Below, in pieces: positions 1-39,529 of a stretch of 39,529 nt of DNA (its first letter is position 1; every line of letters begins with the position of its first letter). This DNA comes from a virus (taxonomy: Duplodnaviria; Caudoviricetes), in IMG/VR virus record IMGVR_UViG_3300005739_000034, positions 1 through 39,529 of that record. The stretch is one strand, 5' to 3'. The position numbers and the translations under genes were made by a program. Under the pieces are notes generated by a model. The model was not told the DNA's origin. It did no database searches and saw only the letters and a list, made by a program, of their open reading frames with translations.

Positions 1-3000
1 CGGAAATCTCCTGCACGGTGAACCGCGTTTGCATGAACTGGCGCAGGTTGTCCGCGCCCCACTCTGCGCGAAGCGTGTTGAACAATCCCAAGCCTTCATT
101 GATTGCGCCTGCCGCTTGCCCGATGCCAATGTCTGTCGGCATCACGCCATTCGCTTTGAAGGAACTGTAGACCTGTTCCGCGAGTTCAAAATTCTTTCCA
201 ACCTTTAGACCGTTGGAGGTGACTGCCATCGCCCATGTCATGGCAAAGCGGGCGTTTTCGTCTCGCTCGATTTCGGGATGGATCAATGCCATCACCGCTA
301 AAGCCTGCCGCGTTTTTACATCATACCACCCGATGGCGTTGGAGTTTTGACGCAATGCCAGCAAAGCATCGCGAAGACCAACGCGCACAAGGTAGGTTGT
401 CGCCTCTGGCGATTCCGCCACTTCCTTGCTGGGAATCGGAACCGTTACTCCTGCCTTTTTGAATTCATCCAGCAATGCCTGTTGCATTGCCTGCTTGAGA
501 TCACGCCCGCGCTGCCAACTTTGTCCCTGTGCAATGTTGAACAGGTTTTCCAGCAATGCTGCCTTGTCTACGGTGTCCGGTATTTCAACGCCGGTTTCGC
601 TGGCGGGTGCTGCCATCTGCTCCAGCATTTCGCTGGTCGGACGGATCGCCGCGGTTGCGTTGTCGAGAATCGTCGCAATCCTTCCAACCGGCACATTGAC
701 CGGCGTCGGTTCGACTGCTTGCACCTCTGTCAGCGGGTAACCGTATTTAATGCCGTCTGGCTTTATGTCGAAGGTTGAATTGGGTTCCACGCGGTGCTGA
801 TCGTAGTCGGCGCGAAATTCATCTACGGTGTTGTAGACCTTCGGCTCGCCAACGACGGCATAGCCAACGATGGACGGTGTGCCGCCCTTGCCGGTGCTGA
901 CCAGCGCAACGCGCCTGCCGATGTATGGTGACAATGTGGGAGCGTCCCGCGTTTCAATGGTCTTTTCGCCGCGGAGGATTTGCCCAGTAAAATCCTGTTC
1001 GCTGTCGTTGATATTGATTCCGCGGGTGCGTGTATCGTCGGCGCGGATCGCAGCGGTTGTTTCTGTGTCCAATATTTCCGTTTGAGCCTGCCGCGTCTGC
1101 GAGTCGATGACCGTGTCAATGGAAATACCCAAAGACTCTGCAAAAAACTGTTCCAACCGTGCGTCGATTTGCCCGCTTTGCAGACCCGCCTGCAATTTGA
1201 CTGCCCGCGCCATGATGTGTTGGAGGTAGACCAGCAACCGTTGGAAAAACTGGGCGAGGCGTTGCGGGATAGAAGCGCGGTCGATGTTTCCGTTGAAGTA
1301 TGCGACACCCAGCGTGGACATCGCTTCGGTGAGGTTGGATGTCTGGTCCGCCTCGTTGAGCGCGTCGAAATTGTCTGCCAGTAGATTCTCGCCGGACGCC
1401 TGCTCATATTGGCGCACCCACTCGACGGTCTGTGCCTTGCTGAAAAGGTTCTGGTTCCATGCCCGCTTGAGGTCGCCTTCGATGGTTTCCTCGATCACCA
1501 CATTGACCATGTCGGGATCGTCGGAGCGGACGATGCGCGACACATCGCGGAAAATGCCGTCGCGCAGTTCCCCGATATTCAAGCCCACGGTCCGGATTTG
1601 GTCCGGTTGCAGACTCACGCCCATTTCCTTTTCCAGAGCGTCGAGACGGAGCTTGAGTTGTTCCGGCGTCATGTTCGCCGCGGCGTCGAGCGTCCCTTCG
1701 TCCACCAGTTCGATGACGCTCTGGTCGGAAATCCCGCGTTCCTCTTTCACCTTCCGGAGCGCGGTAACCATCATGTTCAACGCTTCCCAGTTCGCCTGCT
1801 CCTGCGACACCAAGAGTTGCTGGAGTTCGTAGCCTGCCGCCTCCCCGTCTGTGGTTCTCGCAACTTCCTCCCCGTTCCATTTGCGGACCACATAGTCCTC
1901 GCCCTGCTTTTCGATGCTGGGCATCGCGATGGCCGAATCCAGTTGTCCGGCCTGCACCATATCTTCGATGAGCTTGCTGTTGGCCGCGTTGACCGCGGCG
2001 GGATCGCGATTGGCGAATTCCTCGCGGAACGCCTCCTGCGCGGCCTCCGGATCGCGCTGCGATGCCACCCGATCCGCGGCCTCCGCGGAAAACCCCATGC
2101 GCTCCATGATGGCTTTGTCGTAAAGGTAGCGTTCCCCGAATTTGACCTCGTTGTAGCCGATGGCCCCAAGGCCGATTAGCGACAGCGGCAAGGTTGCCAC
2201 GGCATTGACGGCCACCTCGCGGGGAAGGTTCTGAACCTTGGCTTTCCAGTCGGGGTCTTTGATGTCCTCATCCAGCGCGGCAAAGACTGTCTGCACAACC
2301 GGCGTGACGGCATTTTCGATGAGTTCTTGAATGTTCTGCTCGGTGTAACCGGCAGCACCCATGATCATGGTTCGGGTCAACCATTTTTGCTCCGGTTTGA
2401 TCAGTCGCTTGAAAAGTCCGGAAGTAAACGGCAACGCTTTTCCAAACGCGGCAAGGAACTGGATGCGCTCGGTGAAAGCGCGAATCGGCGCGGCGATTGC
2501 CGACATTTGCATGGCTTTTTGCGGGTCCATGTTTGGGTCTTCCAGCATGAATTCCTCGTATTGCTGGGAGTAAAGCGCGAGCGCGGTTGCCGGTAGGCCG
2601 ACATACGGAATTGCCGCCATTGCGCTGTAAGACACACTTGATGCCGCTCCATACAGTCCTTCCTCGGCCCAGTTCGGCAGGAAGGTGGATGTGTAGGTGA
2701 TGGGGTCAATTTTGGTTTCCGCCAGATTGCGAAGTTCTCGCTCAACTTTGATCCGGTTCAGTTGTTTTTTGATGTCCGCGATGCGTTGCTGTTTTTGTTC
2801 CTGCGTCGGGACCGTAAGGTTCATGCCGGTGTAGCCTTCGCTGACCGGAGCCACCATTGCTCCCGTTGTGGAATCCAACAGCACAGGTTCACCGTTTTCG
2901 ATCCGCTGCGATTCAATGCGGAGCGAGGTTTCCGCGGTCACTCCTTTGGTGGATTTGATTGTGCCGGTGGCCATGCGCCCCATCGTTTCGGCCATCTGGT

Positions 3001-3820
3001 AGAAGACACCCTTGTCGGCTTTGAAGAGGGTGGCGAAACTTCCGGCCATGTTGTAGACCGCTTGTCGCCGGTCGTCTGGCATTTCGGCAAATTTGTCGAT
3101 GGCTTCCTCGACGCGCTTGGGGTCAAAGTCGGGGGTGCTGACCATTGCCGGTGTTGGCGACAATCCGCCGACGATCATGGCGGGATCGATACCGCCAGAC
3201 TGCACATCCTCCGTCGCTTTTTGAATGATTCCGGTATCTGCGCCTAATCTCTCGAAAAGCCACCGTGCGTCCTCGATCACTTGCGGAGCAGCGGAGCGCA
3301 TGGACTGTGTGATTTCGTCGGAACGCTTGCGAATTTCCAGCGCGTCGTCCGGAGTGAGCAGATCGGCATACTGGGCCATCTCCTCTTCCAGCGGTTTTTT
3401 TGAATCGTTCTGCCGGTTGTAAAACAAGTCCTCGACGGTTCGCCGTGCGACATTTTCCAGCAGGGTCCGTCCCGCGGCGTTTCGCTGGTTGATGTTGTCG
3501 AACTTGGACCGGAAATGTTCAAACAGCGTCTCGTCGGAAACGGACGCCTTGCCCAGTTCGGCGCGGGCCAAGGCTTCCTTCTTGCTGTCGTAGACATCCG
3601 CGAATTCTTCGGGATCGGCTTTGTAGACCGACGACATGTAGGCGATGTTTGCCTGTCGTTTGAGATAGGAATCCGGAAACGCCGTCGTCTCCGCGGCAGC
3701 GCGGAGCGCGGGCCGGTCGGTAAATTCGGTGAAGTAATCTTGGTCGGTGAATAGCCGATTCCAATGGTCGTCCGGCAGTTCCTCTTCCTCTCGCCTTATC
3801 GGTCCTTCAAGTGGTGTCAT
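1..3820 (-). CDS. Giant internal virion/ejection (polyvalent) protein, N-terminal part (continues at 39529)
   Basis: Hand translation from ATG at 3820, which overlaps the upstream TGA: MTPLEGPIRREEEELPDDHWNRLF...NLRQFMQTRFTVQEIS, with no stop met before base 1. Contains an ASCH motif (ILRGEKTIETR) and the start of an HhH-glycosylase-like region (NAIGWYD...AVTSNG). Confidence 0.88.
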   Translation of the reverse strand, partial: MTPLEGPIRREEEELPDDHWNRLFTDQDYFTEFTDRPALRAAAETTAFPDSYLKRQANIAYMSSVYKADPEEFADVYDSKKEALARAELGKASVSDETLFEHFRSKFDNINQRNAAGRTLLENVARRTVEDLFYNRQNDSKKPLEEEMAQYADLLTPDDALEIRKRSDEITQSMRSAAPQVIEDARWLFERLGADTGIIQKATEDVQSGGIDPAMIVGGLSPTPAMVSTPDFDPKRVEEAIDKFAEMPDDRRQAVYNMAGSFATLFKADKGVFYQMAETMGRMATGTIKSTKGVTAETSLRIESQRIENGEPVLLDSTTGAMVAPVSEGYTGMNLTVPTQEQKQQRIADIKKQLNRIKVERELRNLAETKIDPITYTSTFLPNWAEEGLYGAASSVSYSAMAAIPYVGLPATALALYSQQYEEFMLEDPNMDPQKAMQMSAIAAPIRAFTERIQFLAAFGKALPFTSGLFKRLIKPEQKWLTRTMIMGAAGYTEQNIQELIENAVTPVVQTVFAALDEDIKDPDWKAKVQNLPREVAVNAVATLPLSLIGLGAIGYNEVKFGERYLYDKAIMERMGFSAEAADRVASQRDPEAAQEAFREEFANRDPAAVNAANSKLIEDMVQAGQLDSAIAMPSIEKQGEDYVVRKWNGEEVARTTDGEAAGYELQQLLVSQEQANWEALNMMVTALRKVKEERGISDQSVIELVDEGTLDAAANMTPEQLKLRLDALEKEMGVSLQPDQIRTVGLNIGELRDGIFRDVSRIVRSDDPDMVNVVIEETIEGDLKRAWNQNLFSKAQTVEWVRQYEQASGENLLADNFDALNEADQTSNLTEAMSTLGVAYFNGNIDRASIPQRLAQFFQRLLVYLQHIMARAVKLQAGLQSGQIDARLEQFFAESLGISIDTVIDSQTRQAQTEILDTETTAAIRADDTRTRGININDSEQDFTGQILRGEKTIETRDAPTLSPYIGRRVALVSTGKGGTPSIVGYAVVGEPKVYNTVDEFRADYDQHRVEPNSTFDIKPDGIKYGYPLTEVQAVEPTPVNVPVGRIATILDNATAAIRPTSEMLEQMAAPASETGVEIPDTVDKAALLENLFNIAQGQSWQRGRDLKQAMQQALLDEFKKAGVTVPIPSKEVAESPEATTYLVRVGLRDALLALRQNSNAIGWYDVKTRQALAVMALIHPEIERDENARFAMTWAMAVTSNGLKVGKNFELAEQVYSSFKANGVMPTDIGIGQAAGAINEGLGLFNTLRAEWGADNLRQFMQTRFTVQEIS

Positions 3821-5886
3821 GTGAGTCCAAGTTTCCGCGCATTGCGATTCATGCGTTCCTCTGCCCAGCGCAGGAGGTCGGCATTCGTCTGGATTTCAGC
3901 AAGGAACGGGTTGGCCTTGATGACCGTGTTGGCCCAGCCCTTTTTGACCGTGTTGAGTGTGTCGCGGAAATCGGCGTCGGGGTTTTGCAGAATTTTTGGA
4001 CCGATCCCGATGCCTTGAAAATAGACCACATAAGTTTCCGCGGGGGTCGGTTCGCGTCCCAATGCCTTGCGGGCCACCTCTTGGTTTTCGCGCACCTTGG
4101 CCAGTCCTTGCGCGATGCCGTTTCCGCCATACCGTTTGCGGTCGCCGTCGAGGAACTGGAAAACCCCGCGGGCCGATGAGGTCGAGGATTTGGTGTTCGG
4201 GTTGAATCCGGACTCCATGTAAGCAATGAGAGTCGCCAGTTTCGGGTCTGTGCCGGTGCGCTGGGCCTCGGTCGTGATCTGGCGGGCCACATCTCCTTGC
4301 ACCTTGGGAAGTGTGGCATACATGCCTTCTTGCCTCTGCATTGCGCTGGAAAACCATGTGGACGGAGAAAACAGGTTCCACTCTTTCTTTTTGAAAAACT
4401 CGCCAGCGGCCCCTTTGGTCTTTCCGTTGGCCGATTCCAAAAACAACCGGCGGGCCTCGGTGGGATCGATGTTCGGATTCTTTTTCAGAATCTCCATGAC
4501 CTCCTTCCGCATCTCCGCGGCCTTGCTTTCCACCTCGTTGTATTTCGTCCAGTTTTTCGGTTTGCCGTTTTCGTCGGTTCCACCGTCGTCTCCCAGAACG
4601 CCCCATTTGCGAAGGTTGCCGGTGAGTGAAAGAAGGTCGCTTTGAATATCGTTCTGGACGCTGCGGCCTTTGGATCGGATGTCCGAAAGCGTGTCGAAGA
4701 AAATCTGCCATTCGCCGGTCGGCATTTTGGTTTTCACGGTCTGGCGCAGTTGCCGGTATTTTTCTTCGTCGAGATCGGTGGTCGGATCGTAAGCGGAAAT
4801 CTCCCCGTAGAGTTCGCGCTGGGCTTGCAGGAATTTCGCCTGTCCCTCCGGAGTCGCGGCATATGCCGCTCCGCGGGTCGAAAGCAATTGTTGCGTGTCG
4901 CGTTCGGACAAGCGGGCCATTTGGGCAATCGACCGAATTTTTTCCGGATCGGCATTGATTGGATCGCGCAGGATTTCGCTGTCGATGGCTTCGACGGCTT
5001 CGCGTTGGATCGTCGTCACGCGGGCGTTTGCGGCTTGCAGGGCTTGCGCCAGTTGCGTCGGTTGCAGGTTTTCAAACATGGAACTTTTCCCGCCCGCCGC
5101 GGCTTGCGCGAAATGGTTTTTTGCTTCAAACGGGTCGCTGTTGATGAAGTTTTGGATGGTCTGCGCCTGCATCCGCTTTTCGCGTTCCAGTTGGTTTTGC
5201 TCGTATTCGCCCTGTGTGGACAAACCCAAGTGCATCCGCTTGGCGTCGATTGCCGCCGCGCCTTCCCAATTCCCCATGAATTCCAGCTTGTCGCGCTGCG
5301 CGACGAGGGAAGCGTCCGTCTCGTCCATCTGCGCTTTGTCGGCGCGGAGCCTTGTATTAACGGTGTGTTGGGTCAGTTTCCCGTCCACCAGCACTTGCAT
5401 CTTGGCTTTGCCGGTGTTGGAAATCGGCATTCCTCCAATTTCTTTGACGAGGCGAGGAACCACATTTTCATTCCATTCCTTCATCCAAGTTCCAGCAGGC
5501 TTGTCGGACATGCTGTCCGCAAATTCGGCATACCGGCTATCGATGAGATTTTCAGCCTTGGACAGAGTCCCTTCGTCACGGACCTTTTGCATGTTCAGCG
5601 CGTAATCGCCCAGCATGCCTGCCACTTTGATGCCGGTTTGCCCAAGGTTGGCAACGGCCCGCGAGGCATAATCCACAAATTCTTCCTGCCGGTAGAACGG
5701 TTCTGGAATCGGAGCGGCCAGCAATTCCGCGGCGGAACCGATCATCTGCGATGCGCGTCCAAAGTTTGGCGCGGACACGGTTGGCGTTCCGTAACCGCCC
5801 GCGGAGGGAATTCCCATTGCGGGAATGTCCGGTGCATTTGGAACAAAATCGGGAGCGTTTGGGACTTGGGTGATCGGGATGGCCAT
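3817..5886 (-). CDS. Internal virion protein with C-terminal lytic transglycosylase (SLT-like) domain
   Basis: C-terminal IAYMESGFNP...SARGVFQF lysozyme-like motif after a long helical body; lies in the ejection-protein block. Confidence 0.8.
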   Translation of the reverse strand: MAIPITQVPNAPDFVPNAPDIPAMGIPSAGGYGTPTVSAPNFGRASQMIGSAAELLAAPIPEPFYRQEEFVDYASRAVANLGQTGIKVAGMLGDYALNMQKVRDEGTLSKAENLIDSRYAEFADSMSDKPAGTWMKEWNENVVPRLVKEIGGMPISNTGKAKMQVLVDGKLTQHTVNTRLRADKAQMDETDASLVAQRDKLEFMGNWEGAAAIDAKRMHLGLSTQGEYEQNQLEREKRMQAQTIQNFINSDPFEAKNHFAQAAAGGKSSMFENLQPTQLAQALQAANARVTTIQREAVEAIDSEILRDPINADPEKIRSIAQMARLSERDTQQLLSTRGAAYAATPEGQAKFLQAQRELYGEISAYDPTTDLDEEKYRQLRQTVKTKMPTGEWQIFFDTLSDIRSKGRSVQNDIQSDLLSLTGNLRKWGVLGDDGGTDENGKPKNWTKYNEVESKAAEMRKEVMEILKKNPNIDPTEARRLFLESANGKTKGAAGEFFKKKEWNLFSPSTWFSSAMQRQEGMYATLPKVQGDVARQITTEAQRTGTDPKLATLIAYMESGFNPNTKSSTSSARGVFQFLDGDRKRYGGNGIAQGLAKVRENQEVARKALGREPTPAETYVVYFQGIGIGPKILQNPDADFRDTLNTVKKGWANTVIKANPFLAEIQTNADLLRWAEERMNRNARKLGLT

Positions 5887-7334: not shown

Positions 7335-10217
7335 CTAATCACCATAGAAATCCACTTTTGCGACGATTGCCAATACCGAAAGCGGGTAAGGTTGTTGTTG
7401 CCGTATGTAGACCGGCAAAGCGGCATCGTAGTCACTTGCAACGACAACTTCTTTGTCCCCTGTAAACGGATTGGGAGAAGCATCCATTTGGTCGTTAAAA
7501 TCCCGCGGGTAAAGCCATTCCCAGTCCGTTCCGTTGGTTGATACCTGTCCGCCAAGTGATTTGGTCACGCTGACCACAAGTTTGTGAATCCGCTTGCGAC
7601 GACCGCGGGATGTGCCGTCTTGCAGGTTGTTCACATCAATGGTCATGGGTTGGAGTGTCGAATTGAACGGCAAACCGGCCAGCACCACCGAAGCAGGCTT
7701 GTCGAGCGTGATTTGACCACCGGACACGGATCGCGGAAGTTCCGCCGCGCCATCCGCCAGCACAGAAACTTGCAGACCTTCCAGATGGGACAAACCGGAC
7801 ATCGTTGCGCTGGCCGATCCCGTGCGCCGGACGGCGCAGTCTAAATACCACCAACTGTTCTTTGCTTCGTTCTCGAAATGCTCTCTGTGCAGAATGTGGA
7901 ATCGCTCGATGTAGCGCACGGCTTGCCCATTCACGGTGCGTTTGACCGACAACCAGACCTCGTCGGAGGTTCCGACGCCATAAATGACAGCGACGGATTC
8001 AAAATCCCCATCCGTTGTGTGCCTGTGCCATCCGACGACTTGCTGATCTCGCTCGTAGGTCATTCCGATCAATTGACCATCTCCGCGGATCGCCCAGTAA
8101 ATGGCATCGTTTTGTTGCTGGTAATCCGATTCAACAATCTCTCCGTTGGTCACATGTTCAGCCAGAACGGTGAGGTCCGGAGCCACCCATCCATCACGGT
8201 CCAGCACATAAGTCAACTCACGCACCTTGCGTCCCTGCCGTTGCACAAAAAGCATGACATCGTTGATGGTCGAAGCTGGAAGGTATTTTGATCCGTAAGC
8301 GGACTGCTTTTGCGCGGTGACATTTAATGGCGTGATGCCTTCGTCGGGATTGGACGATCCCAGCGTCCACTCGTTTCCGCTGGTCCCAATCATCAGCTTG
8401 TCTTGCGATTCAAGCCAATTGATGCGGTTGGCTTCTTTGCTGGAAAGCGTGATGGCAATGCCAGCGTCCGCATTGTCGCTGATACGCATGTTCTCAAAAT
8501 CGTCAACAACGCTTGCCCATAGTGACTGGGGTTTGCTGGCCGTCCCACCAAACCAAATGCGCGATTCGTGAAGCATAACGGTGCGCGGATGTCCGCGGTG
8601 GTTTGACCATGCTCCTTCGGCCCAATTTTTAGTCGCGGTCGTTTTAGCTACAGGATTGACTACATTGACTGCAACTTGAGTTGGGCTTGTGTATCCAGTC
8701 ACCTTGACGACACCATATTGCACATTGTTCAACGCTTCCAAACGCGCAACACGGGTTTCGTAGTTGATAGGCGTCCAATATTTTGCGTTGAACGGAGTAA
8801 AATCAATGGGTTCCCAGTAGGCAAAATTGGTTGGTCTGTAGTCGATTTTTTCCAACCGATTCATTTCGTAATCCGCTTCCTGTGGTGTGTTGGAAGACAG
8901 CATTTGAATGTCGTTGTCTTGACGCGCATCACCGTAAGTTTTGGCCGGTCCAAACACAGAAGTCACAACACGCCAAAATGCCGATGTGCCTGCACTTTCT
9001 TGAACAATTTGGTTGGCAAATTTATCCGCGGACGGCCATGTGCCGCTCCACGGCGAGCGAACTGCCGCATATGCCGTGTGGCATCTAAAAACAAAACCGT
9101 CTTGTTCTGTCGGGCAACGAAATTGTGTGCCTACAGCGACAGTTGTGTTGTTGGCGTAATTCACCGTCGCGTTGGTGTGCGTCTTAATGCATTTGTAGGT
9201 TTTGGTGTTGTAAGTGACAAAATCCCCTTCCGCGTATGTGGCTTGTGACGACCAATTGGCAGCAATATTGTTATGAGCAAGAACGCAGCGATAAACATTG
9301 TTTTCATAAACGCGGATGTCGTCTTTTGCAAAAGTCGAATTGCTGCTCCATGCCGGTCCTGTTGAATAGTCTGCAATCCGAATTCGCAACTTCACCTCAT
9401 TTTCGGTTTTTCCTGTTGTGGACAAGTTTCGCTCTGCTGCACCTTTGTAGTTGCGGATGGTCTGCCATGTCGCTCCATCGTCTTCGGATTGTTCGATGGT
9501 GATGAGCGCGGACCAAACGCCGGAAGTGGAAAATTCCCAGTCGCCAAACACGGCCAACGAATCGCTGGTTCCGTTTCCGTCGATGACTTTTTCGACATAA
9601 GACGCTTCCATGTCGTGACCGATTTGCCAGTAGCTGCCGACATGGTTGGCGTTGAATGTGGCCGCGGAAGCCGTCATGGTCCGGTTGTTGCCGGTCGTGT
9701 GACTGACCGACAATGTCGTGTTTTCGAGATTTTCATCGAGCAGCGCGGGCCATGTCCACGCCACTTCGGCCAGCGTCCAGTTATTGTCGGCCACACGGGA
9801 CAATTTGTGCGGGGCCACATCCGGATGCACCAGATACATGATGTCGTTGATTTGGACGAACTGCACCTCGCGTAGTTGGGATTCTGTGAATGGACTTGCC
9901 ACTTCCAGAATCGCATTGGCATTTGTCAGCACTTGCACACCGTTTGACCAGAAACGCATGTATTGGTGACCCATTTCGATGACAAAGCGCGTCGTCGTGG
10001 AAAAGTTGAATCCGATCAAACGGCAACGCCGGTTGGCGAATTTTGCGGCCCCAAGGTATTCGGTCCCGCCGCGCCGGATTACCCCGCCATAGGGCAGGAT
10101 GATGAAATTTTCCAGCGTCTTGCACCCGTTGCGGTATTTCTCCACATCGAGCCGCGCATCCATGTAGGGAGAAAGTTCTCCCGCGTTGAAACTGTTGGCG
10201 AGGATTGAAACCGGCAT
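7335..10217 (-). CDS. Tail tubular protein B / nozzle (T7 gp12, P22 gp10-like) with carbohydrate-binding-like insertion
   Basis: N-terminal NSFNAGELSP...NFIILPYGGVIRRGGT and later QQVVGWHRH and LSHLEG motifs typical of the family; insertion at about 8760-9360. Confidence 0.9.
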   Translation of the reverse strand: MPVSILANSFNAGELSPYMDARLDVEKYRNGCKTLENFIILPYGGVIRRGGTEYLGAAKFANRRCRLIGFNFSTTTRFVIEMGHQYMRFWSNGVQVLTNANAILEVASPFTESQLREVQFVQINDIMYLVHPDVAPHKLSRVADNNWTLAEVAWTWPALLDENLENTTLSVSHTTGNNRTMTASAATFNANHVGSYWQIGHDMEASYVEKVIDGNGTSDSLAVFGDWEFSTSGVWSALITIEQSEDDGATWQTIRNYKGAAERNLSTTGKTENEVKLRIRIADYSTGPAWSSNSTFAKDDIRVYENNVYRCVLAHNNIAANWSSQATYAEGDFVTYNTKTYKCIKTHTNATVNYANNTTVAVGTQFRCPTEQDGFVFRCHTAYAAVRSPWSGTWPSADKFANQIVQESAGTSAFWRVVTSVFGPAKTYGDARQDNDIQMLSSNTPQEADYEMNRLEKIDYRPTNFAYWEPIDFTPFNAKYWTPINYETRVARLEALNNVQYGVVKVTGYTSPTQVAVNVVNPVAKTTATKNWAEGAWSNHRGHPRTVMLHESRIWFGGTASKPQSLWASVVDDFENMRISDNADAGIAITLSSKEANRINWLESQDKLMIGTSGNEWTLGSSNPDEGITPLNVTAQKQSAYGSKYLPASTINDVMLFVQRQGRKVRELTYVLDRDGWVAPDLTVLAEHVTNGEIVESDYQQQNDAIYWAIRGDGQLIGMTYERDQQVVGWHRHTTDGDFESVAVIYGVGTSDEVWLSVKRTVNGQAVRYIERFHILHREHFENEAKNSWWYLDCAVRRTGSASATMSGLSHLEGLQVSVLADGAAELPRSVSGGQITLDKPASVVLAGLPFNSTLQPMTIDVNNLQDGTSRGRRKRIHKLVVSVTKSLGGQVSTNGTDWEWLYPRDFNDQMDASPNPFTGDKEVVVASDYDAALPVYIRQQQPYPLSVLAIVAKVDFYGD

Positions 10218-13006
10218 CAGTAGATTCCGGTTCTGCGGGAGCGCACGATTCTGCTGTCAATCCACGCAATCCGCGTCTTTTCCTTTGCCTCGAAAACATC
10301 CATGAGCCGCGCTTTCGGGCCGGTCAATCGTTCGTATTGTTCCGTGAGCATTCCGATCATTTCCATTTTGCCAAGCGGGCCTGCCAGTTTTGTCGCCAGT
10401 TTTACCGTGAGGGATTCGACGAACAGAGGCGGGTAACCTGCCGTGTCGGTCACCCGCGCCACATATTTGATTTGCGCGGTTGGTTCGTTGGTCATCACTT
10501 TGCCAGCCTCGACGGCATAGGACTGGATGGAAATGGCTGGATCGTAGTTGTTGAGTTGAAGGACGCGGATGCAGTCCGCGGGAAGGTCATATGACTTTTC
10601 CCATTCAAACAGCGGAGCCGTTGCGGAAGCGTTCAAATTTGACCGGCGGATGGCGAAATTCCACGGATGGGACACCATGACTTCGTCGCGGGTCGGCTCG
10701 TAAAAACGGTCGGCAAGTTGCGCTTGGATGGACTGGTCGCCAAAAGAAGTGATAGGCGTCACGCCAAGCATGGCCAAGGCGTTGTTGGCGATTTCCAGAG
10801 AAGTGATCCCCGCTCCAACGACACGGTTGGTTCGCTTGCGTTGTTCACCGGCCTGCGGGGTTTCTTGAATCTTCGCGTAGGTCAAAAACAGTTGTTTGAC
10901 CATATCCGGCTTTTGAAGGGGACCGGCCAGTTTGATGGCCAGCTTGGTAGCCAAAGCCTCGACAAACAGCGGGGAATACAAATCCACTTGCGTGACCTTG
11001 GCCACATAGCAGATTTCGATGCCAACTCTGTCGGAAAGCAATTTGTTTCCCTCCAAGGCATATTTGCTTTGGATCGTTTCAACCTCGTCTTTGTCAATCT
11101 GGATGAGGCGCAGGTAGTCGGAAGGGAGCGTGTAAGTGTAAGCCCACTCGCTGAACGCCGAATTTGCCGTGCCGGTCAAAGTTGCCCGTTTGATTGCGAA
11201 AGTCCAATTGCGGCTTTCCAACACTTCGTCGCGGGTTGGTGTGTAAAACCTGTCGCACAACTGCGCTTGGATGCTCTGGTCGGAAAACCCAACAATCGGG
11301 TCCGCGCCGATCATAGCAAGCGAGAGGTTGGCAATTTCCACAGAATTGAAAACCGTTCCCTTGGATCGATTGGATCGCCGGTTTTTTTCACCCGCTTGCG
11401 GAGTAACCGCCAACTTCTCGTAGCTGACCAACAGCAATTTTGTGAGGTCCGGCTTTTGTCCTTGATGGATCGGGCCGGACAATTTCAACGCCAATTTGGC
11501 CACCAGCATTTCGACAAATAGAGGACTGTAAAAGGTCGCGTCGGTGATTCTGGCGACATAAACGACATCGACCTCCTCTTCGTCTGTGAACAATTGAAAC
11601 CCCTCGATGGTGTATTTGTGTTGGATGGCATCGATTTCGTCGTTGTTGATTTGGACAAGCCGAATGAAATCCAATGGCAGCGCGTATCGGTAGGCATATT
11701 CGCTGCCCGCGGCATTTGACATGCGAATGAGCGGTTGTCTTTTCGTCGCGAATTGCCACACCCGCGTTTCCAAAACCTCGTCCACGGTTTGCGCGTAAAA
11801 CCGGTTGGCCAGTTGGGCGGACGCGCTGGGGTCCAACATGGAAACAATCGGCGACACGCCCAGCATCGCGAGGGACATGTTGACGATTTCCACTTCGTCC
11901 ACGGTGGCAGATTGCTTGCGGTTGGCGCGTTTAAGAGCTTCTCCGGATTGGGGAGTCGTGGTCAGCTTTTCCAGCGAAAGCATGAGCGTCCGGATCAAGT
12001 CGGGCTTTTGACCCTGCAAAAGCGGGCCTGCCATTTTCAAAGCAAATTTAGTCGTCAGCGTTTCAACGAACAGCGGCGAGTAAAGGGTCGCGTCGGTGAT
12101 CCGCGCCACATAGATGGCTTCGACCGATGCCTCGTCTGTGAGCAGCTTGTTGCCTTCGATGGCATATTTGTTCTGAATCGTCGCAACCTCGTCTTTGTTG
12201 ATTTGAATCAAGCGCAGGTAGTCGCTGGGCAGCGTGTAGGAATACAACCACTCGCTGCCGGTCGGGTTGCTGGCGCGGGTTAAAGTCGAGCGTTTGGTTG
12301 CAAATGTCCAAGGGCGGGATTCCAGCACCTCGTCACGGGTCAAATCGTAAAGCCGTTCGGCAAGCTGGGCCTGTGTGCTGGCGTCGGAAAACGAAGTTAT
12401 GGGTGGCGCACCCAGCATGACCAATGCGGTGTTGGCAATTTCGACGGCATTGAATGCAGTTCCTTTGTCGCGCTTTGCCCTACCCTGTTGTTCTCCTACC
12501 TGCGGAGTTGTGATTGCCTTTTCGTAAAGAGCCAGATAGTCCATCGACAACTTGAGTGCGCCGGTCAACGGACCTACAAGTTTGCTGGCCAGCTTCAGCG
12601 CGAAGGCTTCGGAAAAAAGCGGGGAATAGAGGGTCGGGTCGGTGACCCGTGCCACATAGCAAATGGTGATCGGGTTTTCGTCGGTGACGATGGTTCTGCC
12701 TTCAATGGCATATTTGAATTTGATCGTCTCGATTTCGTCGTTGTTGATTTGGACGAGTCGAAGAAAGTCCGAAGGGAGTTGGTAGGCGTATTGCCATTCG
12801 GAGATTGGCGCGGTGCTTAATTGGGAGAGGTTTTGCCGTTTGATGGCAAATGTCCACGGTCGTGCCGCCAGCACTTCCTCCCGCGTTTGATCAAAAAACC
12901 TTTTGGCAAACTGCGCTTGTTTGCTGTCGTCCGACAATTCCATGATGGGAGAAATTCCCAACCGGCCAAGTGCGTCATTTGCGATTTCGGTGTCGGATGC
13001 GGGCAT
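10217..13006 (-). CDS. Tail tubular protein A / adaptor (T7 gp11-like) with five tandem domain copies
   Basis: The pattern EI[AV]NxxLxx[LI]G...EV[LM]xxxxWxFA...YxLPxD...YxPLF repeats five times at about 184-aa spacing; lies between capsid and nozzle genes. Confidence 0.9.
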   Translation of the reverse strand: MPASDTEIANDALGRLGISPIMELSDDSKQAQFAKRFFDQTREEVLAARPWTFAIKRQNLSQLSTAPISEWQYAYQLPSDFLRLVQINNDEIETIKFKYAIEGRTIVTDENPITICYVARVTDPTLYSPLFSEAFALKLASKLVGPLTGALKLSMDYLALYEKAITTPQVGEQQGRAKRDKGTAFNAVEIANTALVMLGAPPITSFSDASTQAQLAERLYDLTRDEVLESRPWTFATKRSTLTRASNPTGSEWLYSYTLPSDYLRLIQINKDEVATIQNKYAIEGNKLLTDEASVEAIYVARITDATLYSPLFVETLTTKFALKMAGPLLQGQKPDLIRTLMLSLEKLTTTPQSGEALKRANRKQSATVDEVEIVNMSLAMLGVSPIVSMLDPSASAQLANRFYAQTVDEVLETRVWQFATKRQPLIRMSNAAGSEYAYRYALPLDFIRLVQINNDEIDAIQHKYTIEGFQLFTDEEEVDVVYVARITDATFYSPLFVEMLVAKLALKLSGPIHQGQKPDLTKLLLVSYEKLAVTPQAGEKNRRSNRSKGTVFNSVEIANLSLAMIGADPIVGFSDQSIQAQLCDRFYTPTRDEVLESRNWTFAIKRATLTGTANSAFSEWAYTYTLPSDYLRLIQIDKDEVETIQSKYALEGNKLLSDRVGIEICYVAKVTQVDLYSPLFVEALATKLAIKLAGPLQKPDMVKQLFLTYAKIQETPQAGEQRKRTNRVVGAGITSLEIANNALAMLGVTPITSFGDQSIQAQLADRFYEPTRDEVMVSHPWNFAIRRSNLNASATAPLFEWEKSYDLPADCIRVLQLNNYDPAISIQSYAVEAGKVMTNEPTAQIKYVARVTDTAGYPPLFVESLTVKLATKLAGPLGKMEMIGMLTEQYERLTGPKARLMDVFEAKEKTRIAWIDSRIVRSRRTGIY

Positions 13007-27172: not shown

Positions 27173-28351
27173 ATGGCATCCCTCACCACTCTCCCCAACT
27201 CCCCTTACTGGGTCGCTCGCATGAAAGTCTGGGTGACCGTCGAAGACCACCCACAGGGCGGTTTCTACCGGCGAACCTTCCGGTCCACCAAGGTCAAGGT
27301 CAAGTCTGCCCGCCGGACCGCACAGCGTGTCGCTGACGAAATGGAGCGCACCGCTTGCGAGTTGCGCGACATGAAACCGGACAAGGCATGGTTTGAGGCG
27401 CGTGTAGCCGCGCTGATGCGGGCGTCGGGGGTCGAGGCTCCGGTGGAGCGGACCAACTGGAAAAACGCCGCCGCGGGGTGGCTACGCGCCAAGGACGCCA
27501 AGCCACGGTCCATTGAACGATACGAATCGGACATCGCCCATTTCACGGCATTCCTTGGGGTCCGCGCCGGTCACGATTTGCGCGGGGTCACGCCGGACGA
27601 TGTGTCGAGGTTTTACCAGTCCCTGCTCGCCTCCGGATTGTCGGCAACCACCGCCCAGCACATCACCAAAACCATCCGTTCGGTCTTCCGGCGGGCAGTC
27701 CTGTTGCGCCGGATCGAGAGCAATCCCGCGGAACTGCTCCGGATGCGCGGCGGCAAATCCGCGGTCCAGCGACAACCGTTTTCCAAGGCGGACCTCGATA
27801 CGATTTTTTCCCACCTCAAAACGGAGCATCCGGAATGGCGCACCGCTTGCCTGTTCGGTTTGTGCTACGGAATGCGGATCGGTGATGCGGTCCGGAGGCG
27901 GATCGAGGAAATCGACACCGTGGACGGCATCCCGTGCCTGCAATTCGTCCCAGAAAAAAAATCATGGCGGGGAAAAACCGTCAGCGTCCCGCTGGTCGGG
28001 GAACTGGAAAAGTTAACCCACAGGTTAACCGGCAAAGGATACATCACGCCGCACCTCGCCTCGCTGCCAAACCCGTCGAAGGAATTTGGCAAGGTGCTTG
28101 GACGCTCAAAACTCAAACGCAAGAAAAGCGAGAAGACCGCGCAGGGTCGCGGGATCACCGACAAAACATTCCACTCCTTCCGGCACACCATAAATTCCCT
28201 GCTGGTCGATACCGGCGCGGACCAGCGTGTCCGGCAACTGATATGCGATCACGATGACGCCAAGGTCAACGCGCACTACACCCACGCTTCACTCGCCACA
28301 ATGGCGGCGGCAATCGACAAGGCAATCAGTCGAGGAACTGTGCCGAAATAA
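27173..28351 (+). CDS. int: Tyrosine integrase
   Basis: YGMRIGD (R), FHSFRHT (HxxR), CDH and HYTH (Y) catalytic motifs; the only plus-strand gene. Confidence 0.93.
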   Translation: MASLTTLPNSPYWVARMKVWVTVEDHPQGGFYRRTFRSTKVKVKSARRTAQRVADEMERTACELRDMKPDKAWFEARVAALMRASGVEAPVERTNWKNAAAGWLRAKDAKPRSIERYESDIAHFTAFLGVRAGHDLRGVTPDDVSRFYQSLLASGLSATTAQHITKTIRSVFRRAVLLRRIESNPAELLRMRGGKSAVQRQPFSKADLDTIFSHLKTEHPEWRTACLFGLCYGMRIGDAVRRRIEEIDTVDGIPCLQFVPEKKSWRGKTVSVPLVGELEKLTHRLTGKGYITPHLASLPNPSKEFGKVLGRSKLKRKKSEKTAQGRGITDKTFHSFRHTINSLLVDTGADQRVRQLICDHDDAKVNAHYTHASLATMAAAIDKAISRGTVPK

Positions 28352-34904: not shown

Positions 34905-37900
34905 TTATTCTTCATCCTTCGTCATTTTATCCCATAGCCCCGCAGCATCTTTTGCGATGTTCAACATTGCTGCAACAGATGCCACCGCCATGCTGCCGGT
35001 GACGGTCGCGGTGAGTTGCGCGTAGGATTGAATTCCCTTCACGACATCGCTTGCGTCTTCCCAGTTCCACGGTTTGAAATCTTTTCGCATGACCAGCGTC
35101 GGAATCCGGACCAGCGGATTCTCGCTGGAGTTGAAGACCGGCGATCCGAAGACCGCGTTGCCTGCCATTGCCAGCGCGGGACCGGCGAGGAAAAGACCGT
35201 TGAGGTGTCCCATGACTGCCGCCCGTGCGTAGTCTTCCCAGCGCACGATTTCCTGCTCGTCATCGTCGCGGAAAATGGATTGGAAAATGTCGGTGAGTGC
35301 TTCGGTGATGACACCCATTGCCACCCATCCCGCGGCGAATTTTTTGAGGTTGCGCTTCACATCACGACCGGCAGCGATTTCGCGGGCGATCATGTAATTG
35401 ATGGCAAACTTCTGCCGCGGCTCCGACGCGAACAAATACAGCAGGCGAACAAACGGACTCCGGTTTGCCTCCAACAGACTGCGATCCGTCAGCGATGCCG
35501 GTTGCGCGGTGCGCCGGACGCTGGCGTCCATGCGGTCAAGCGCAATGCTCTTTGCCGCCTCCTTGCTCAAGCCCTGCGCGAGCGCGGCGTTGTAGTGGTG
35601 GTCGAATGCGATTGCCGCTCCGAAGGTCGTGAGGAAAGCGTCCAGTTGCGCGATGTTGAGCATTCCGCGCTCTGCCAGCGCGAGCAGTTTACTGGGCGAC
35701 ATTCCCGCGCTCTGGTTGACTGCCCGCGCCTCCGGAGAATAGCCCGCCTCGATGCGGCGTTGAATGGTCGGGGAGTTCCAGATTTCCGGCAGGCTTGCCG
35801 ACAACTGCCCGCGGAAAAACTTGGTCAGTCCGCGAAGGTATTCATCGACGCCGATGTCGAGCGAGATTGCCATGCCCGCAGACCCTTGTTTGAACAGCGT
35901 GGACAGCGCGTAGCCCATGAACATTACCGCTTGAAGACCCATCTGCCGGTTGAGCATATCGCTGACAACTTCCAGCATTTTTCCGGAGTCGAGTCCGTTG
36001 CGGTCGAATGCCAGAATCCATTTCTTCATGCGCTCCGCGTCGGCTTCGCCAACCCGCGCCTTGATTGCGCGAACCACATCTGTTGAAGCAATCGTGCCGC
36101 GAAGTTCGCGCACCAGTTCGGCAAAGTTGATCCAGTAGTTCTGGGTCACCATGTGCGATTGGAAAACCGACAGAGCATTCATTCGCAGGATCGGCGCGTT
36201 GTGAGACACGCGCTGTTTGACGAAGCCAGCGTTCATGCCGGTCAGCGACGGTGACATTTCGTCCGGACCCATGACCGTGTCGGTCTGCGCGGTGTCGTAG
36301 GCAGTCGGCGCGTAGTTCCGGACCCGCGGCATATCCATTCCGTAGATTCTCCGGTAGACAGCGTTCACGCGGTCGTAGCCTTGCGAGTATTGCGAGCGCA
36401 GGTAGTCGAGCATGATCTGCCCGTTGTTCGACAGGAAGTCTTGCGACAGCGAGTCGATGTAGTCTTGCGTGTAGCCCTGCCGCTCCATCTTCACACGCAC
36501 ATCGTCCTGTGACCACATGAGGATGTCTTGAATCGCTTCCAATTCGGAAAGGCGTTGCTCCCGCGGGACGCCATTGGAAACGACGCGCTCCAACTCGATA
36601 AATTTCCGGCGGGCAATGTTTCCGGCAGGGATTGCGGACAACTCCGCGTTCAAGCGAAACAACTCCTCCCTGTCGAATCCCAGCGCGTTCCCTTTGTTTT
36701 CAAAGATTGCCGCGATGGCAGTCTGCATGGGGATGCGCTCGACTTTGACCTGTTTGCCCTCGTAGATGACTGCCTTGCTTTGGCGTGTCTCGTTGAGCTT
36801 CTGCAAGGCGTCGTTGAGTGCCGCCATTGTCTTCAGATTGATTTTGTCCCCGATGCCCATGCGCTGGATCATCACCAAACGGAAGTTGTTCTTCGCTTGA
36901 ATCTGTGCGTCCTCGAAAGCGTTGGTCGCCCGCCGGACCCGTGTCTCGTATTGGTTCGCGAGTTTGCCTTCTCCAAAGATTTTCCGGAGGTGCTGATACC
37001 ATGCAAGGTGACCCTCAAGGTAGTTCTGCGCCTTGCTCCACCAAGTGACCGATTCCTCTTTGCTCTTCTGCAACTGGGACGGCAACGCGCCGGTCGGCAC
37101 ATTCTGGTTGAGTTCGGTTTGCGCCTCGTTCCGGATGCGCTCGTATTCTTCCAGACGCAATTTTTCCTGCGCCTTCCATTGGTCGCGCCCGCGCAGGATC
37201 ACGCTCCGGAGCGATTCGTAGCTTTGCGCCAGCGATTCCGCGCTGTGCTGGTCCGCGGACGCCAGCGCACCGTAACGGTCCAGTAATGCCCATTCTTCCT
37301 GCAACTGCGCCAGCATTTCCGGTGTAGCCTCCGGATCGTTCATCTGTGCCTGTATGCCGGTGATCTTGTTGGCGACATCCTTCTGCTCCAGATCAATCAC
37401 GCTGGCGATGTAGTTTACAATGCGCTGCGCCTCCGGTCCGATCCGGCTCCGGTTGGTGCGGTTTTTGTCGGTTGTGTCGGAGAGGTTCTCGACCAGTTCG
37501 TTGATTTCCTCGATGTAGGCTCCGCGGAGGTATGCTTCCAACGCTTTGTCGGTCCGCTCGATTCGCTTCAACAGGTAGTTCATCCTGCCGCGGGCGGTTT
37601 TGTATCCCGCCAGTTTTTCCGCCCCGCCGATGTTCTTCCGCGCTTCCGGCGGGAGCATCGAAATCAACGCCTCCAGATACGCCACCGCTTCAATCTGTGA
37701 CAGCGGATCGTCGGGACGCTTTTGACTAAACCGGTCACGGATCGATTTGAACTTTTTGAGCGCGGCGGCAACCCGCTCGCGGCGGAATTTGGGATCGCCG
37801 TCCATCTGCGCGAGACGGTCGCGCAAGGTGTCGCCGGTCGCCGGTCGGACCGCGGCGGTTACAATTTGCGCTTGCTTCTGAAATTCACCTACCGCTTTTT

Positions 37901-39529
37901 CCTGCGCTTTGACTGCCTTGCCGTAGTCGGTGAAAACCTTTCCGTCTTTTGGTGAATGCCAAGCATGACCGGTAGAATCGTGCGCCATGAAAACCACATC
38001 CGGTTCACCGTTGTTAAATTCACGGAAAAGCGTTTTGTCCCATCCGTCCGGTGCTTGGGAATCATCCCATTTCAAACGGGACACAGCGACAAACCCGTGC
38101 GCCGAATAAAACTTCGGAAGGATGGTTTCAAACGCATCCAGTTTTGTGCCGCCTGCCGCAACAGCAAGTTCTATGATTGCCCTGCCTGCGCCTCCGGTGC
38201 TGAACACAGAAACAATGTCCCCGTCCGGCTTGACTCCAACTCCGCTCAACCCGTCTTTGGTGACAAACAACTGCATTTTTGCGTAGTCGTCTGCCGGATA
38301 CACATAAACGGAAGCACCAAATTTGTTGCTGGTTTTGCTTGCGGTGATTAGTTCAGCAAACCGTGCCGCGTTTTGAGGTGTCTGCTCTAATTCGTAAAAG
38401 AGAGGCGCGACATCCTGCCCCTTCGATACAGCGTCTGGAGAAGTGGCTTTAAGGATGCGGCGGAATGCTGGTCCCGCCTTCCATTCTGCTGTATAAGAAA
38501 CGCCAAGGTTTTTTAGAACCCGTGCGCTTTTGCCATCTCGTCCAGTTTCTCGATTGTAAGAGTAGGATATTCTTTCAGAAGTGCGCCTACCCAATCGGAT
38601 TCGTCTGACTCCAACCGCAGAGGTGAAGAGTTTTTTCTGCGTTGGAGTAAAGCCTCCAACTTTGCCCTGCTCCCCTTTACCCGCGGCTTGGCTTTGAGAT
38701 TCTGGTCGTGTTGTTGCTGTGAGTTCATCGTTGAGTGCTTTCTTTATTTTGCGCTCCGAAACGCCCTTTGCTCTGGCAACTCCTGCCGCGGCGTTGGCGT
38801 AATCCGGTGCTTCATCATCTTCGTAGCCTTCAACATTGCTGTCAGTATCCTCGTCCTCTTTTGCTGTCTCGTAAAGGCGTTTTTCGGCATACCACAGCAC
38901 CGCTTGAAGGTCCGCCATTGTCAGTTCGGCGTATTCCGGCATTGCCTTCAGTTCGGCAAGAATCTGTCCAAACACATGGCGAATGTAGTTGCGTTCATGC
39001 GGTCCGTCCGGAGCCTCTTTCTGCCCGTCAATTTCCTTGGCAAGGTTGTTGCCGGTTTTCCGAAGGTCCGATCCGCCTTCGACGGAATTCATCACATCGC
39101 GAAATTGTTTGTCCATCGACGCCTTTTGAATGGCGTTGGCGAGTTCATCGACGCTGTCATCGCTTTCGGTCAGACCTTCCATCGCGGCAATCAACCGCTC
39201 CCTGTCCTTCGGCTTGAGTTCGGTTTCTCCTTTGGTCTTGGTAACTTTTTTGAGTGACCGCAATCCCTCCGCAAGTTTGGCAACATCTGTTTTTGCCAGC
39301 GCATCCCGCAATGTCGTTCTTCCGCTGACGATCCGCGCTTCATCGCGCACGATCAATGTGCCGGTCCATCGTCCCCATGTCCGGACCAACCAACGGTCCA
39401 TCGTCAAGGCGTCGAAATACCCGTAGAGGTTTGAGAAAAATTCGTTGCCGATTTTGGGACCAAGGATCGCGGAACCGCGGACCATTGTTGCGGCGTGTTC
39501 CCCGCTGGGAGTCAAATCCGGAGACAGTC
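34905..39529 (-). CDS. Giant internal virion/polyvalent protein, C-terminal part (continues from base 1)
   Basis: Frame is open to the window end. Base 1 plus bases 39529-39528 make GGA, giving ...QEIS-G-LSPDLTPSGEH. Contains GPKIGN...TMDRW...LQAVLW and GNAT-like LPKFYSAHGF. Confidence 0.9.
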   Translation of the reverse strand, partial: LSPDLTPSGEHAATMVRGSAILGPKIGNEFFSNLYGYFDALTMDRWLVRTWGRWTGTLIVRDEARIVSGRTTLRDALAKTDVAKLAEGLRSLKKVTKTKGETELKPKDRERLIAAMEGLTESDDSVDELANAIQKASMDKQFRDVMNSVEGGSDLRKTGNNLAKEIDGQKEAPDGPHERNYIRHVFGQILAELKAMPEYAELTMADLQAVLWYAEKRLYETAKEDEDTDSNVEGYEDDEAPDYANAAAGVARAKGVSERKIKKALNDELTATTRPESQSQAAGKGEQGKVGGFTPTQKKLFTSAVGVRRIRLGRRTSERISYSYNRETGRDGKSARVLKNLGVSYTAEWKAGPAFRRILKATSPDAVSKGQDVAPLFYELEQTPQNAARFAELITASKTSNKFGASVYVYPADDYAKMQLFVTKDGLSGVGVKPDGDIVSVFSTGGAGRAIIELAVAAGGTKLDAFETILPKFYSAHGFVAVSRLKWDDSQAPDGWDKTLFREFNNGEPDVVFMAHDSTGHAWHSPKDGKVFTDYGKAVKAQEKAVGEFQKQAQIVTAAVRPATGDTLRDRLAQMDGDPKFRRERVAAALKKFKSIRDRFSQKRPDDPLSQIEAVAYLEALISMLPPEARKNIGGAEKLAGYKTARGRMNYLLKRIERTDKALEAYLRGAYIEEINELVENLSDTTDKNRTNRSRIGPEAQRIVNYIASVIDLEQKDVANKITGIQAQMNDPEATPEMLAQLQEEWALLDRYGALASADQHSAESLAQSYESLRSVILRGRDQWKAQEKLRLEEYERIRNEAQTELNQNVPTGALPSQLQKSKEESVTWWSKAQNYLEGHLAWYQHLRKIFGEGKLANQYETRVRRATNAFEDAQIQAKNNFRLVMIQRMGIGDKINLKTMAALNDALQKLNETRQSKAVIYEGKQVKVERIPMQTAIAAIFENKGNALGFDREELFRLNAELSAIPAGNIARRKFIELERVVSNGVPREQRLSELEAIQDILMWSQDDVRVKMERQGYTQDYIDSLSQDFLSNNGQIMLDYLRSQYSQGYDRVNAVYRRIYGMDMPRVRNYAPTAYDTAQTDTVMGPDEMSPSLTGMNAGFVKQRVSHNAPILRMNALSVFQSHMVTQNYWINFAELVRELRGTIASTDVVRAIKARVGEADAERMKKWILAFDRNGLDSGKMLEVVSDMLNRQMGLQAVMFMGYALSTLFKQGSAGMAISLDIGVDEYLRGLTKFFRGQLSASLPEIWNSPTIQRRIEAGYSPEARAVNQSAGMSPSKLLALAERGMLNIAQLDAFLTTFGAAIAFDHHYNAALAQGLSKEAAKSIALDRMDASVRRTAQPASLTDRSLLEANRSPFVRLLYLFASEPRQKFAINYMIAREIAAGRDVKRNLKKFAAGWVAMGVITEALTDIFQSIFRDDDEQEIVRWEDYARAAVMGHLNGLFLAGPALAMAGNAVFGSPVFNSSENPLVRIPTLVMRKDFKPWNWEDASDVVKGIQSYAQLTATVTGSMAVASVAAMLNIAKDAAGLWDKMTKDEE
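38513..38728 (-). CDS. Candidate overprinted 71-aa ORF nested in the giant gene (alternative frame)
   Basis: ATG to TAA with an A-rich upstream region; protein-like C-terminus DWVGALLKEYPTLTIEKLDEMAKAHGF; the main frame here reads as an R/S/G-rich linker. Confidence 0.5.
   Translation of the reverse strand: MNSQQQHDQNLKAKPRVKGSRAKLEALLQRRKNSSPLRLESDESDWVGALLKEYPTLTIEKLDEMAKAHGF

Follow-up and report, generated by a model that had tools for sequence, protein, structure and literature searches.

Orphan immunity genes, standing apart from their toxin, are a feature of polymorphic toxin systems. In the embedded spanins Rz/Rz1, a small +1-frame gene lies inside the gene of its partner; the two are cooperating lysis proteins, embedded or separated according to lineage. 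Here we describe a 71-codon gene nested in the +1 frame of a giant gene of a tailed phage (Caudoviricetes; IMG/VR record IMGVR_UViG_3300005739_000034), whose whole stretch of 39,529 nucleotides is called the window below. The nested gene ends just before a GNAT-fold acetyltransferase domain encoded by the same giant gene, and probably provides the immunity protein of that domain.

Among described systems, the MuF polymorphic toxin-immunity pairs of temperate phages have a small ORF (open reading frame) downstream of the effector, which is the presumed immunity gene (Jamet et al. 2017, PMC5576092). Polyvalent proteins are giant multidomain chains of the late region, with LPD, InPase, ART and GNAT domains, and are thought to be injected (Iyer et al. 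2017, PMC5512222). They gather many predicted toxic enzymes on one chain, and how the producing cell survives them is puzzling, since no immunity gene can stand downstream of a domain inside the chain. The locus in the window comprises the following elements.

38513..38728, minus strand: nested gene of 71 codons with an ATG start, shifted by +1 from the frame of the giant ORF; its product is the predicted antidote (immunity protein) of the GNAT; the relative L001 has a copy with 90% identity and the same start and stop
38516..38596, minus strand: C-terminal helical hairpin of the nested protein, conserved in alignments (helices 46-53 and 59-68), with Gly-Phe as last residues before the stop
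38513..38729, minus strand: R/S/G-rich linker of the giant protein, on the same bases as the nested gene (36% R/S/G; GC content at third codon positions, GC3, 0.36)
37965..38492, minus strand: GNAT-fold acetyltransferase domain with LDAFDTxLP and NNGEPD motifs, from its model and fold searches; predicted virion-delivered effector
34905..39529, minus strand: 3' part of the giant gene, 1,540 codons, for a virion/ejection-type polyvalent protein; residues 1001-2540 of L001 match 39527..34908 at 97.5%
1..3820, minus strand: 5' part of the giant gene, 1,273 codons, the contig being circularly permuted

The giant gene runs from 3820 to 1 and then from 39529 to 34905 on the minus strand, for a total of about 2,814 residues. 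L001 reads through the contig junction: its residues 782-999 correspond to 655..2 and its residue 1001 to 39527. Like the described polyvalent proteins, the giant protein is encoded in the virion gene block, where it comes after the tail genes and an SLT-bearing internal virion gene, and its relatives carry LPD38, LPD23, InPase and ART-PolyVal. In L182, ART-PolyVal stands in the chain of the GNAT, as it does for the first of the two GNAT families of PMC5512222. The giant protein of the window matched no Pfam family; its best BFVD match is an LPD-containing protein (E = 3e-25). Unlike the present case, the GNATs of PMC5512222 are given no immunity or antidote gene in the accessible part of that paper, where the word 'overlap' has no occurrence and 'nested', where shown, refers to a hairpin; its supplement may already hold this GNAT family.

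With the MuF pairs, the locus shares a virion-associated carrier with an effector domain, a small presumed immunity ORF and a temperate phage as its setting (PMC5576092), as well as an effector that is found on variable carriers (portal, VG15/minor capsid, polyvalent and WXG100 proteins). In contrast to them, the GNAT of the window is internal, as is usual for this effector, and the small gene is nested upstream and out of frame, an arrangement found in most carriers; the exact downstream layout of the MuF pairs occurs only in the loci L176, L186 and L215. The words 'GNAT' and 'acetyl' are absent from the main text of PMC5576092. By analogy, the pair would work like a polymorphic toxin-immunity pair, yet in most carriers its small gene is not downstream. 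It resembles the spanins in having a small +1 gene inside the gene of its partner, with embedded and separated architectures across lineages; unlike the spanins, the GNAT pair looks antagonistic, and its small gene is captured alone.

An earlier note on this DNA, made from its letters without database searches, had pointed to the 71-residue ORF as an alternative frame on the same strand. The ORF is present at 38728..38513 (-), and its stop lies about 20 nt 5' of the GNAT domain. Over it, the main frame is R/S/G-rich, as the note had seen (36%, against 19.5% over the remainder of 39527..34905). The DNA was also said to be AT-richer: its GC content is slightly lower (49.5%, against 52.1% in the GNAT, 53.9% upstream and 57.8% downstream), but the drop is modest, and the real signal is in codon positions, with a main-frame GC3 of 0.36 against 0.52-0.73 elsewhere and a second-position GC content of 0.57 against 0.40-0.46. 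Since +1-frame ATG ORFs of at least 70 residues occur 15 times within 25.8 kb of the window's large genes, the size of the ORF is not evidence by itself, and the case rests on conservation in relatives.

The AlphaFold2 model of the nested protein has four helices and no strand, with a mean predicted local distance difference test score (pLDDT) of 71.5. The C-terminal helical hairpin expected in the note appears in it as helices 46-53 and 59-68, a block with a pLDDT of 75-79. In the family alignment G70 is invariant, and L57, T58, E60 and F71 are found in at least 90% of 68 members. In four members (P0087, P0158, P0154 and P0201) the hairpin occurs in two tandem copies.

We fetched relatives by the GNAT only, from viral contigs, annotated phages and genomes, one search contributing the best 80 of 451 matches. 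Nine of the 187 loci were dropped as truncated; the other 178 form 96 clusters at 80% identity, 91 with a fused GNAT and 5 with a stand-alone one. A +1 ATG ORF of at least 45 residues, ending between -70 and +60 nt from the GNAT start, is found in 80 of the 91 fused clusters. The background in the same genes is 1202/9195, or 13%, and the controls gave 0/91 for the +2 frame and 0/5 for the stand-alone GNATs. An earlier count of 60/63, which included loci fetched with the small-gene motif, is superseded by this one. Among the 11 fused clusters that lack the ORF by this definition, L178, L180 and L200 do have members of the family, which start elsewhere or have their stop farther away, and in L221 the ORF ends at +67, just beyond the range of the test. 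A profile of the nested family collects 283 representatives at E <= 0.001. When viral contigs were searched with the small-gene motif only, the GNAT was directly downstream, in the -1 frame, in 20/20 and 22/22 loci, the two sets overlapping and including the alignment seeds. Sequence comparison thus strongly supports a tie of the small gene to the GNAT rather than to the carrier.

Substitutions were compared in 14 disjoint close pairs, picked by hand. In the 1376 codons upstream of the overlap, differences at main-frame positions 1/2/3 number 162/100/454 (0.12/0.07/0.33), and in the 2068 GNAT codons 296/215/866 (0.14/0.10/0.42). The overlap has a different pattern: 139/107/114 in 559 codons (Fisher p = 9e-20), and 109/66/69 in its last 28 codons (392 summed; 0.28/0.17/0.18; Fisher p = 8e-21). 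Position 1 of the main codons is the silent position of the nested frame, and it is there that the substitutions in the overlap shift; the synonymous-site comparison proposed in the note therefore speaks for the nested gene. The codons also have a direction. Where the nested gene stops, the main-frame codons are CGG or GGG and the rare CTA, and 48 nested stops divide into 28 TAA, 16 TAG and 4 TGA. Because of these codons, and of stops that are mostly TAA or TAG, the small gene dictates the linker and not the reverse: the Arg-Val-Leu end of the linker follows from the nested Gly-Phe-stop. In a related sequencing run, a 1-nt deletion is compensated by an insertion within the overlap, and both frames are kept.

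These comparisons show the nested ORF to be a conserved protein-coding gene on which selection acts in its own frame. The linker of the giant protein may be its by-product, the frame of the small gene being the constrained one. The note had described the gene as overprinted: the overlap is real, but its direction may be reversed. A conserved frameshift signal was ruled out as an explanation, the Gly and stop codons varying freely. The only RNA run, X20, represented by assembled contigs covering 38692-38914, was dismissed as a sign of expression. No sigma-70 promoter or terminator was found within 38300-39100, so that an internal promoter for expression in the lysogen is unsupported. In L061 (2381-2629), as in L103, L104 and L271, a main-frame stop is located exactly at the site of the nested stop of the relatives and leaves the GNAT as a separate ORF; the nested ORF extends for 10 more codons in these loci, where a natural split or an assembly error is possible.

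The model of the GNAT domain has a pLDDT of 92.7 and a Foldseek E-value of 7e-5. Its best structural match has a Z-score of 11.7 and a root-mean-square deviation of 2.7 Å over 128 aligned residues; there is also a weak match to phrog_2563. The downstream flank is thus GNAT-like as the note had it, but its 'glycosylase-like' label for the upstream domain (38730-39527) was not confirmed: this domain is conserved and has a DRW motif, without a Pfam family at the cut-off in the window, and the upstream part of two relatives matches DUF7178.

Foldseek also matched the GNAT to protein Q0E652 of Pseudomonas phage LKD16 (E = 2e-5). Two tblastn steps lead from the GNAT to Gp13 of phage LUZ19, and the two have the GEPDV end in common. 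Gp13 is a phage GNAT that blocks the growth of P. aeruginosa (PMC3604761), linked to the present domain by distant sequence and structure similarity. Unlike the latter, it is described as a stand-alone early gene of a lytic phage, with no virion fusion (PMC3604761). The LUZ19 protein Rac was ruled out as the relative: it is Gp28 (PMC7552054), not Gp13.

The GNAT-RHH type II toxin-antitoxin systems (AtaRT, TacAT and KacAT; PMC9177977, PMC6698736) are similar in that a small gene stands upstream of a GNAT-fold protein, with neutralisation by direct contact, which is predicted here too. In contrast, no RHH/DUF1778 match was found in the nested family, whether in 26 or in 68 members, and the GNAT is fused to delivery proteins. 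The toxins of GNAT-RHH systems acetylate aminoacyl-tRNA. Nor is the pair a stand-alone two-gene operon: the GNAT is fused in 91 of the 96 clusters, and the 5 stand-alone ones have no partner. A GNAT-RHH system was ruled out as the identity of the pair by the lack of RHH.

The small gene and the GNAT occur together on a portal protein, on VG15/minor capsid proteins and on LPD38/InPase/ART polyvalent proteins, and further on Nocardia WXG100 or zeta/GT4 conflict proteins and on short Rhodococcus proteins. In Microbacterium phages the GNAT is on a protein annotated 'minor capsid protein', which matches VG15. The annotation of Limnohabitans phage DC33 and of two Microbacterium phages has the carrier only and misses the nested gene. 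The Rhodococcus proteins (L177, L185, L191, L196 and L202) have about 370-430 codons, and some are on plasmids; the cassette is therefore not confined to virions. Their main frames have an N-terminal domain without an assigned family (no Pfam match for L177). In L029, L030, L027 and L200 a zeta-toxin domain stands in the chain of the GNAT, and could have a nested antidote of its own. Actinobacteria have a different small family at the same site, with only the final helix and Gly-Phe in common; it includes 55 database proteins, many of them named 'hypothetical protein'.

In the three loci with the downstream layout (Gastranaerophilales; Melainabacteria), the GNAT is at the C-terminus, and directly downstream lies a free small gene that has an AGGAG site. 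In the GNAT tree L176 is the sister of L184, and its downstream gene is 54% identical (E = 3e-19) to the one nested in L184; L176 retains a decayed nested copy as well. The downstream gene of L215 matches the family profile at E = 0.025, that of L186 weakly at E = 2.5. Behind its GNAT, L176 has two tandem copies of the downstream small gene together with its neighbour (3123-3605 and 4224-4706), with a small paralogous-looking ORF between the copies; the arrangement resembles an immunity gene array.

The small gene is also found alone, on DNA that looks cellular, as immunity genes are in polymorphic toxin systems. Among 59 motif matches in metagenomes, a GNAT is present in 13 and absent in 45, which form 20 clusters and include 3 loci with less than 150 nt of sequence downstream; the last, L287, is a false motif match. 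Inside the small gene, the former main frame has at least 3 stops in 32 of the 45 orphans. Several of them start with an AGGAGG site, and differences at the small gene's own codon positions 1/2/3 number 54/33/108 in 575 codons. Because the orphans are intact and differ mostly at their third positions, the small protein is kept on its own; it is probably not toxic alone. Around the stop, identity to phage L048 is confined in L230 and L231 to the span from -280 to +37, where it reaches 91-94%; L248 has 95% identity to L028 between -231 and +63. By these boundaries, the three were captured recently, with hardly more DNA than the small gene itself.

The orphans have as neighbours transposases, a plasmid Mob gene, rpsL, an HD-family hydrolase, AbiTii, PDC-S41 and a type IV restriction-like HNH gene; the majority of the neighbours have no known family, and two cluster with Polynucleobacter proteins. 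L230 and L252 belong to different orphan subfamilies and are both near a MerR gene, L252 also near a VIT-domain gene, which suggests a capture hot spot. DUF3293 recurs near orphans (L251, L252, L261, L265 and L270). HD-family (p)ppGpp hydrolases can act as antitoxins; in L265 a gene resembling them (578-1108) is 0.8 kb upstream of the orphan, and hints at a cluster of captured antidotes.

We consider it likely that the nested gene encodes an immunity protein, that this protein holds the virion-delivered acetyltransferase inactive in the cell that makes the virions, and that the gene has been captured by bacteria. That the nested protein is a partner of the GNAT, as the note had proposed, is strongly supported by the comparative data: the linkage in fused clusters and in motif-fetched loci, and the codon-position shift. 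Its proposed antidote role is supported indirectly, by the downstream layout of L176, L186 and L215, by the selection on orphans, by the growth inhibition of Gp13 and by the weak pass of a complex prediction. In this prediction, the nested protein with the GNAT scored 0.56, against 0.00 for the best control, with a contact agreement of at least 60% and a partner pLDDT of at least 51. The mark is reached by 116/157 solved complexes and 2/215 mismatches, but at scores of 0.60 or less by only 18/157 and both mismatches; the support that the prediction lends to the pairing is accordingly weak.

In this model, one late mRNA would serve for the giant protein and for the nested gene, and the C-terminal hairpin of the nested product would bind and silence the GNAT during virion assembly. 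On ejection into the next cell the GNAT would leave its antidote behind, and it would there acetylate a host target, for host takeover or counter-defence. Nesting would make an internal effector and its antidote a single cassette of about 750 bp, fusable in frame into any carrier. Capture of the small gene would protect bacteria against the enzyme when it is injected, and the stand-alone GNATs of lytic phages would need no antidote. More tentatively, it is possible that phage virion effectors travel generally as cassettes with a built-in out-of-frame antidote, and that bacteria keep the excised gene beside defence genes as a stolen-antidote defence.

If the nested gene is indeed an antidote, its place in the linker would solve the problem of self-protection from internal effector domains. 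If the arrangement is general, many small genes nested in giant virion genes would be cognate antidotes, and would mark toxic domains. The precisely captured orphans suggest a little-recognised route to phage resistance, and the small pair occurs in cultured phage-host systems, such as phage DC33 and the Microbacterium phages.

Several observations weigh against the antidote. In four of the 91 fused clusters (L120, L126, L195 and L226) the GNAT looks intact and no partner was found nearby, and the genome with L172, whose GNAT sequence is identical to that of L126, gave no match to the small gene. The link to Gp13 is distant, with a profile score of 9.9 bits, and we can thus only infer the toxicity of the window's GNAT. 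The actinobacterial small family aligns with that of the window over the last 11 columns only (hhalign probability 24%), so that common ancestry is no more than a possibility. The nested start of the window has no Shine-Dalgarno sequence (-0.9 kcal/mol), although a strong one precedes only 2 of 13 other tested genes of the window. Genomes sampled around one Burkholderiales metagenome-assembled genome contained no orphan (0/28 and 0/401, without a positive control); the host setting of the orphans therefore rests on their contig neighbours, and these counts suggest that orphans are rare or lie in islands that are hard to assemble.

The strongest competitor of an inhibitor is a real GNAT partner that does not inhibit: a chaperone, an activator, a targeting adaptor or a decoy substrate. 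Tight linkage and a weakly passing complex prediction suit any binding partner, and a decoy substrate would also be worth capturing for a host. We nevertheless find this unlikely: the stand-alone GNAT relatives have no such neighbour (0/5), a chaperone or activator would give hosts no reason to keep the gene without a GNAT, as 45 orphan loci do, and in L176, L186 and L215 the small gene stands downstream, where an immunity gene is normally found (PMC5576092). The small gene could instead be an independent mobile microprotein gene, which came to its linker site by chance and hitchhikes with the GNAT cassette. The orphans show that it can exist alone, but in viral contigs it was never found without the GNAT (20/20 and 22/22), its place is kept across unrelated carriers and, where the nested copy is missing or decayed (L176, L186 and L215), a relative is found on the other side of the GNAT; such hitchhiking is quite improbable.

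Reversed roles, with the small protein as a toxin that the GNAT neutralises by acetylation, have a precedent in antitoxins that modify their toxin enzymatically. This reading is very hard to reconcile with the 45 orphan loci, in which the small gene stays intact and selected although a GNAT is absent from its surroundings; moreover, it is the GNAT that is found fused to delivery carriers, and a distant relative of it is toxic. We give the least credence of all to the +1 ORF being an untranslated by-product of linker composition. Long +1 ORFs are common in this genome, and that of the window lacks a Shine-Dalgarno sequence; against this stand the 80/91 linkage over a 13% background, the codon-position shift, and the copies that stand free, have AGGAGG sites and are interrupted in the -1 frame. 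Shine-Dalgarno pairing at nested starts has a median of -3.45 kcal/mol, against -2.4 for background +1 ATGs (p = 0.0016), in a set of n = 60 that includes loci fetched by the small-protein motif.

Database searches gave the small protein no name. A single-sequence search with the 71 residues found no match, and Pfam, PHROGs, NCBIfam and PADLOC hold no family for it. No match was obtained by tblastn of family members against phage and plasmid records; both kinds of search are too insensitive, the nested copy of DC33 having been missed as well. The best ESM Atlas match (0.81) is at chance level, and fold searches with the model gave no Foldseek match and a best Z-score of 3.1, with nothing meaningful. 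Chloroplast ribosomal protein S1 resembles the hairpin weakly at its C-terminus (E = 0.33), which was taken as chance. In the literature within reach, which left out most subscription papers, there is no report of a phage GNAT preceded by a nested immunity gene.

The window is the circularly permuted genome of a temperate podovirus, 98% complete; its gene content includes a capsid, a head-tail connector, a tail tube, a terminase and an integrase. The phage is taken as temperate because of the last of these.

27173..28351, plus strand: tyrosine integrase

The tail tube gene (10217-13006, 929 residues) is unusually long, with what look like five repeats of the phrog_394 tail domain. Two of the 13 tested gene starts of the window have a TTTTTGACTAAACC stretch upstream in common.

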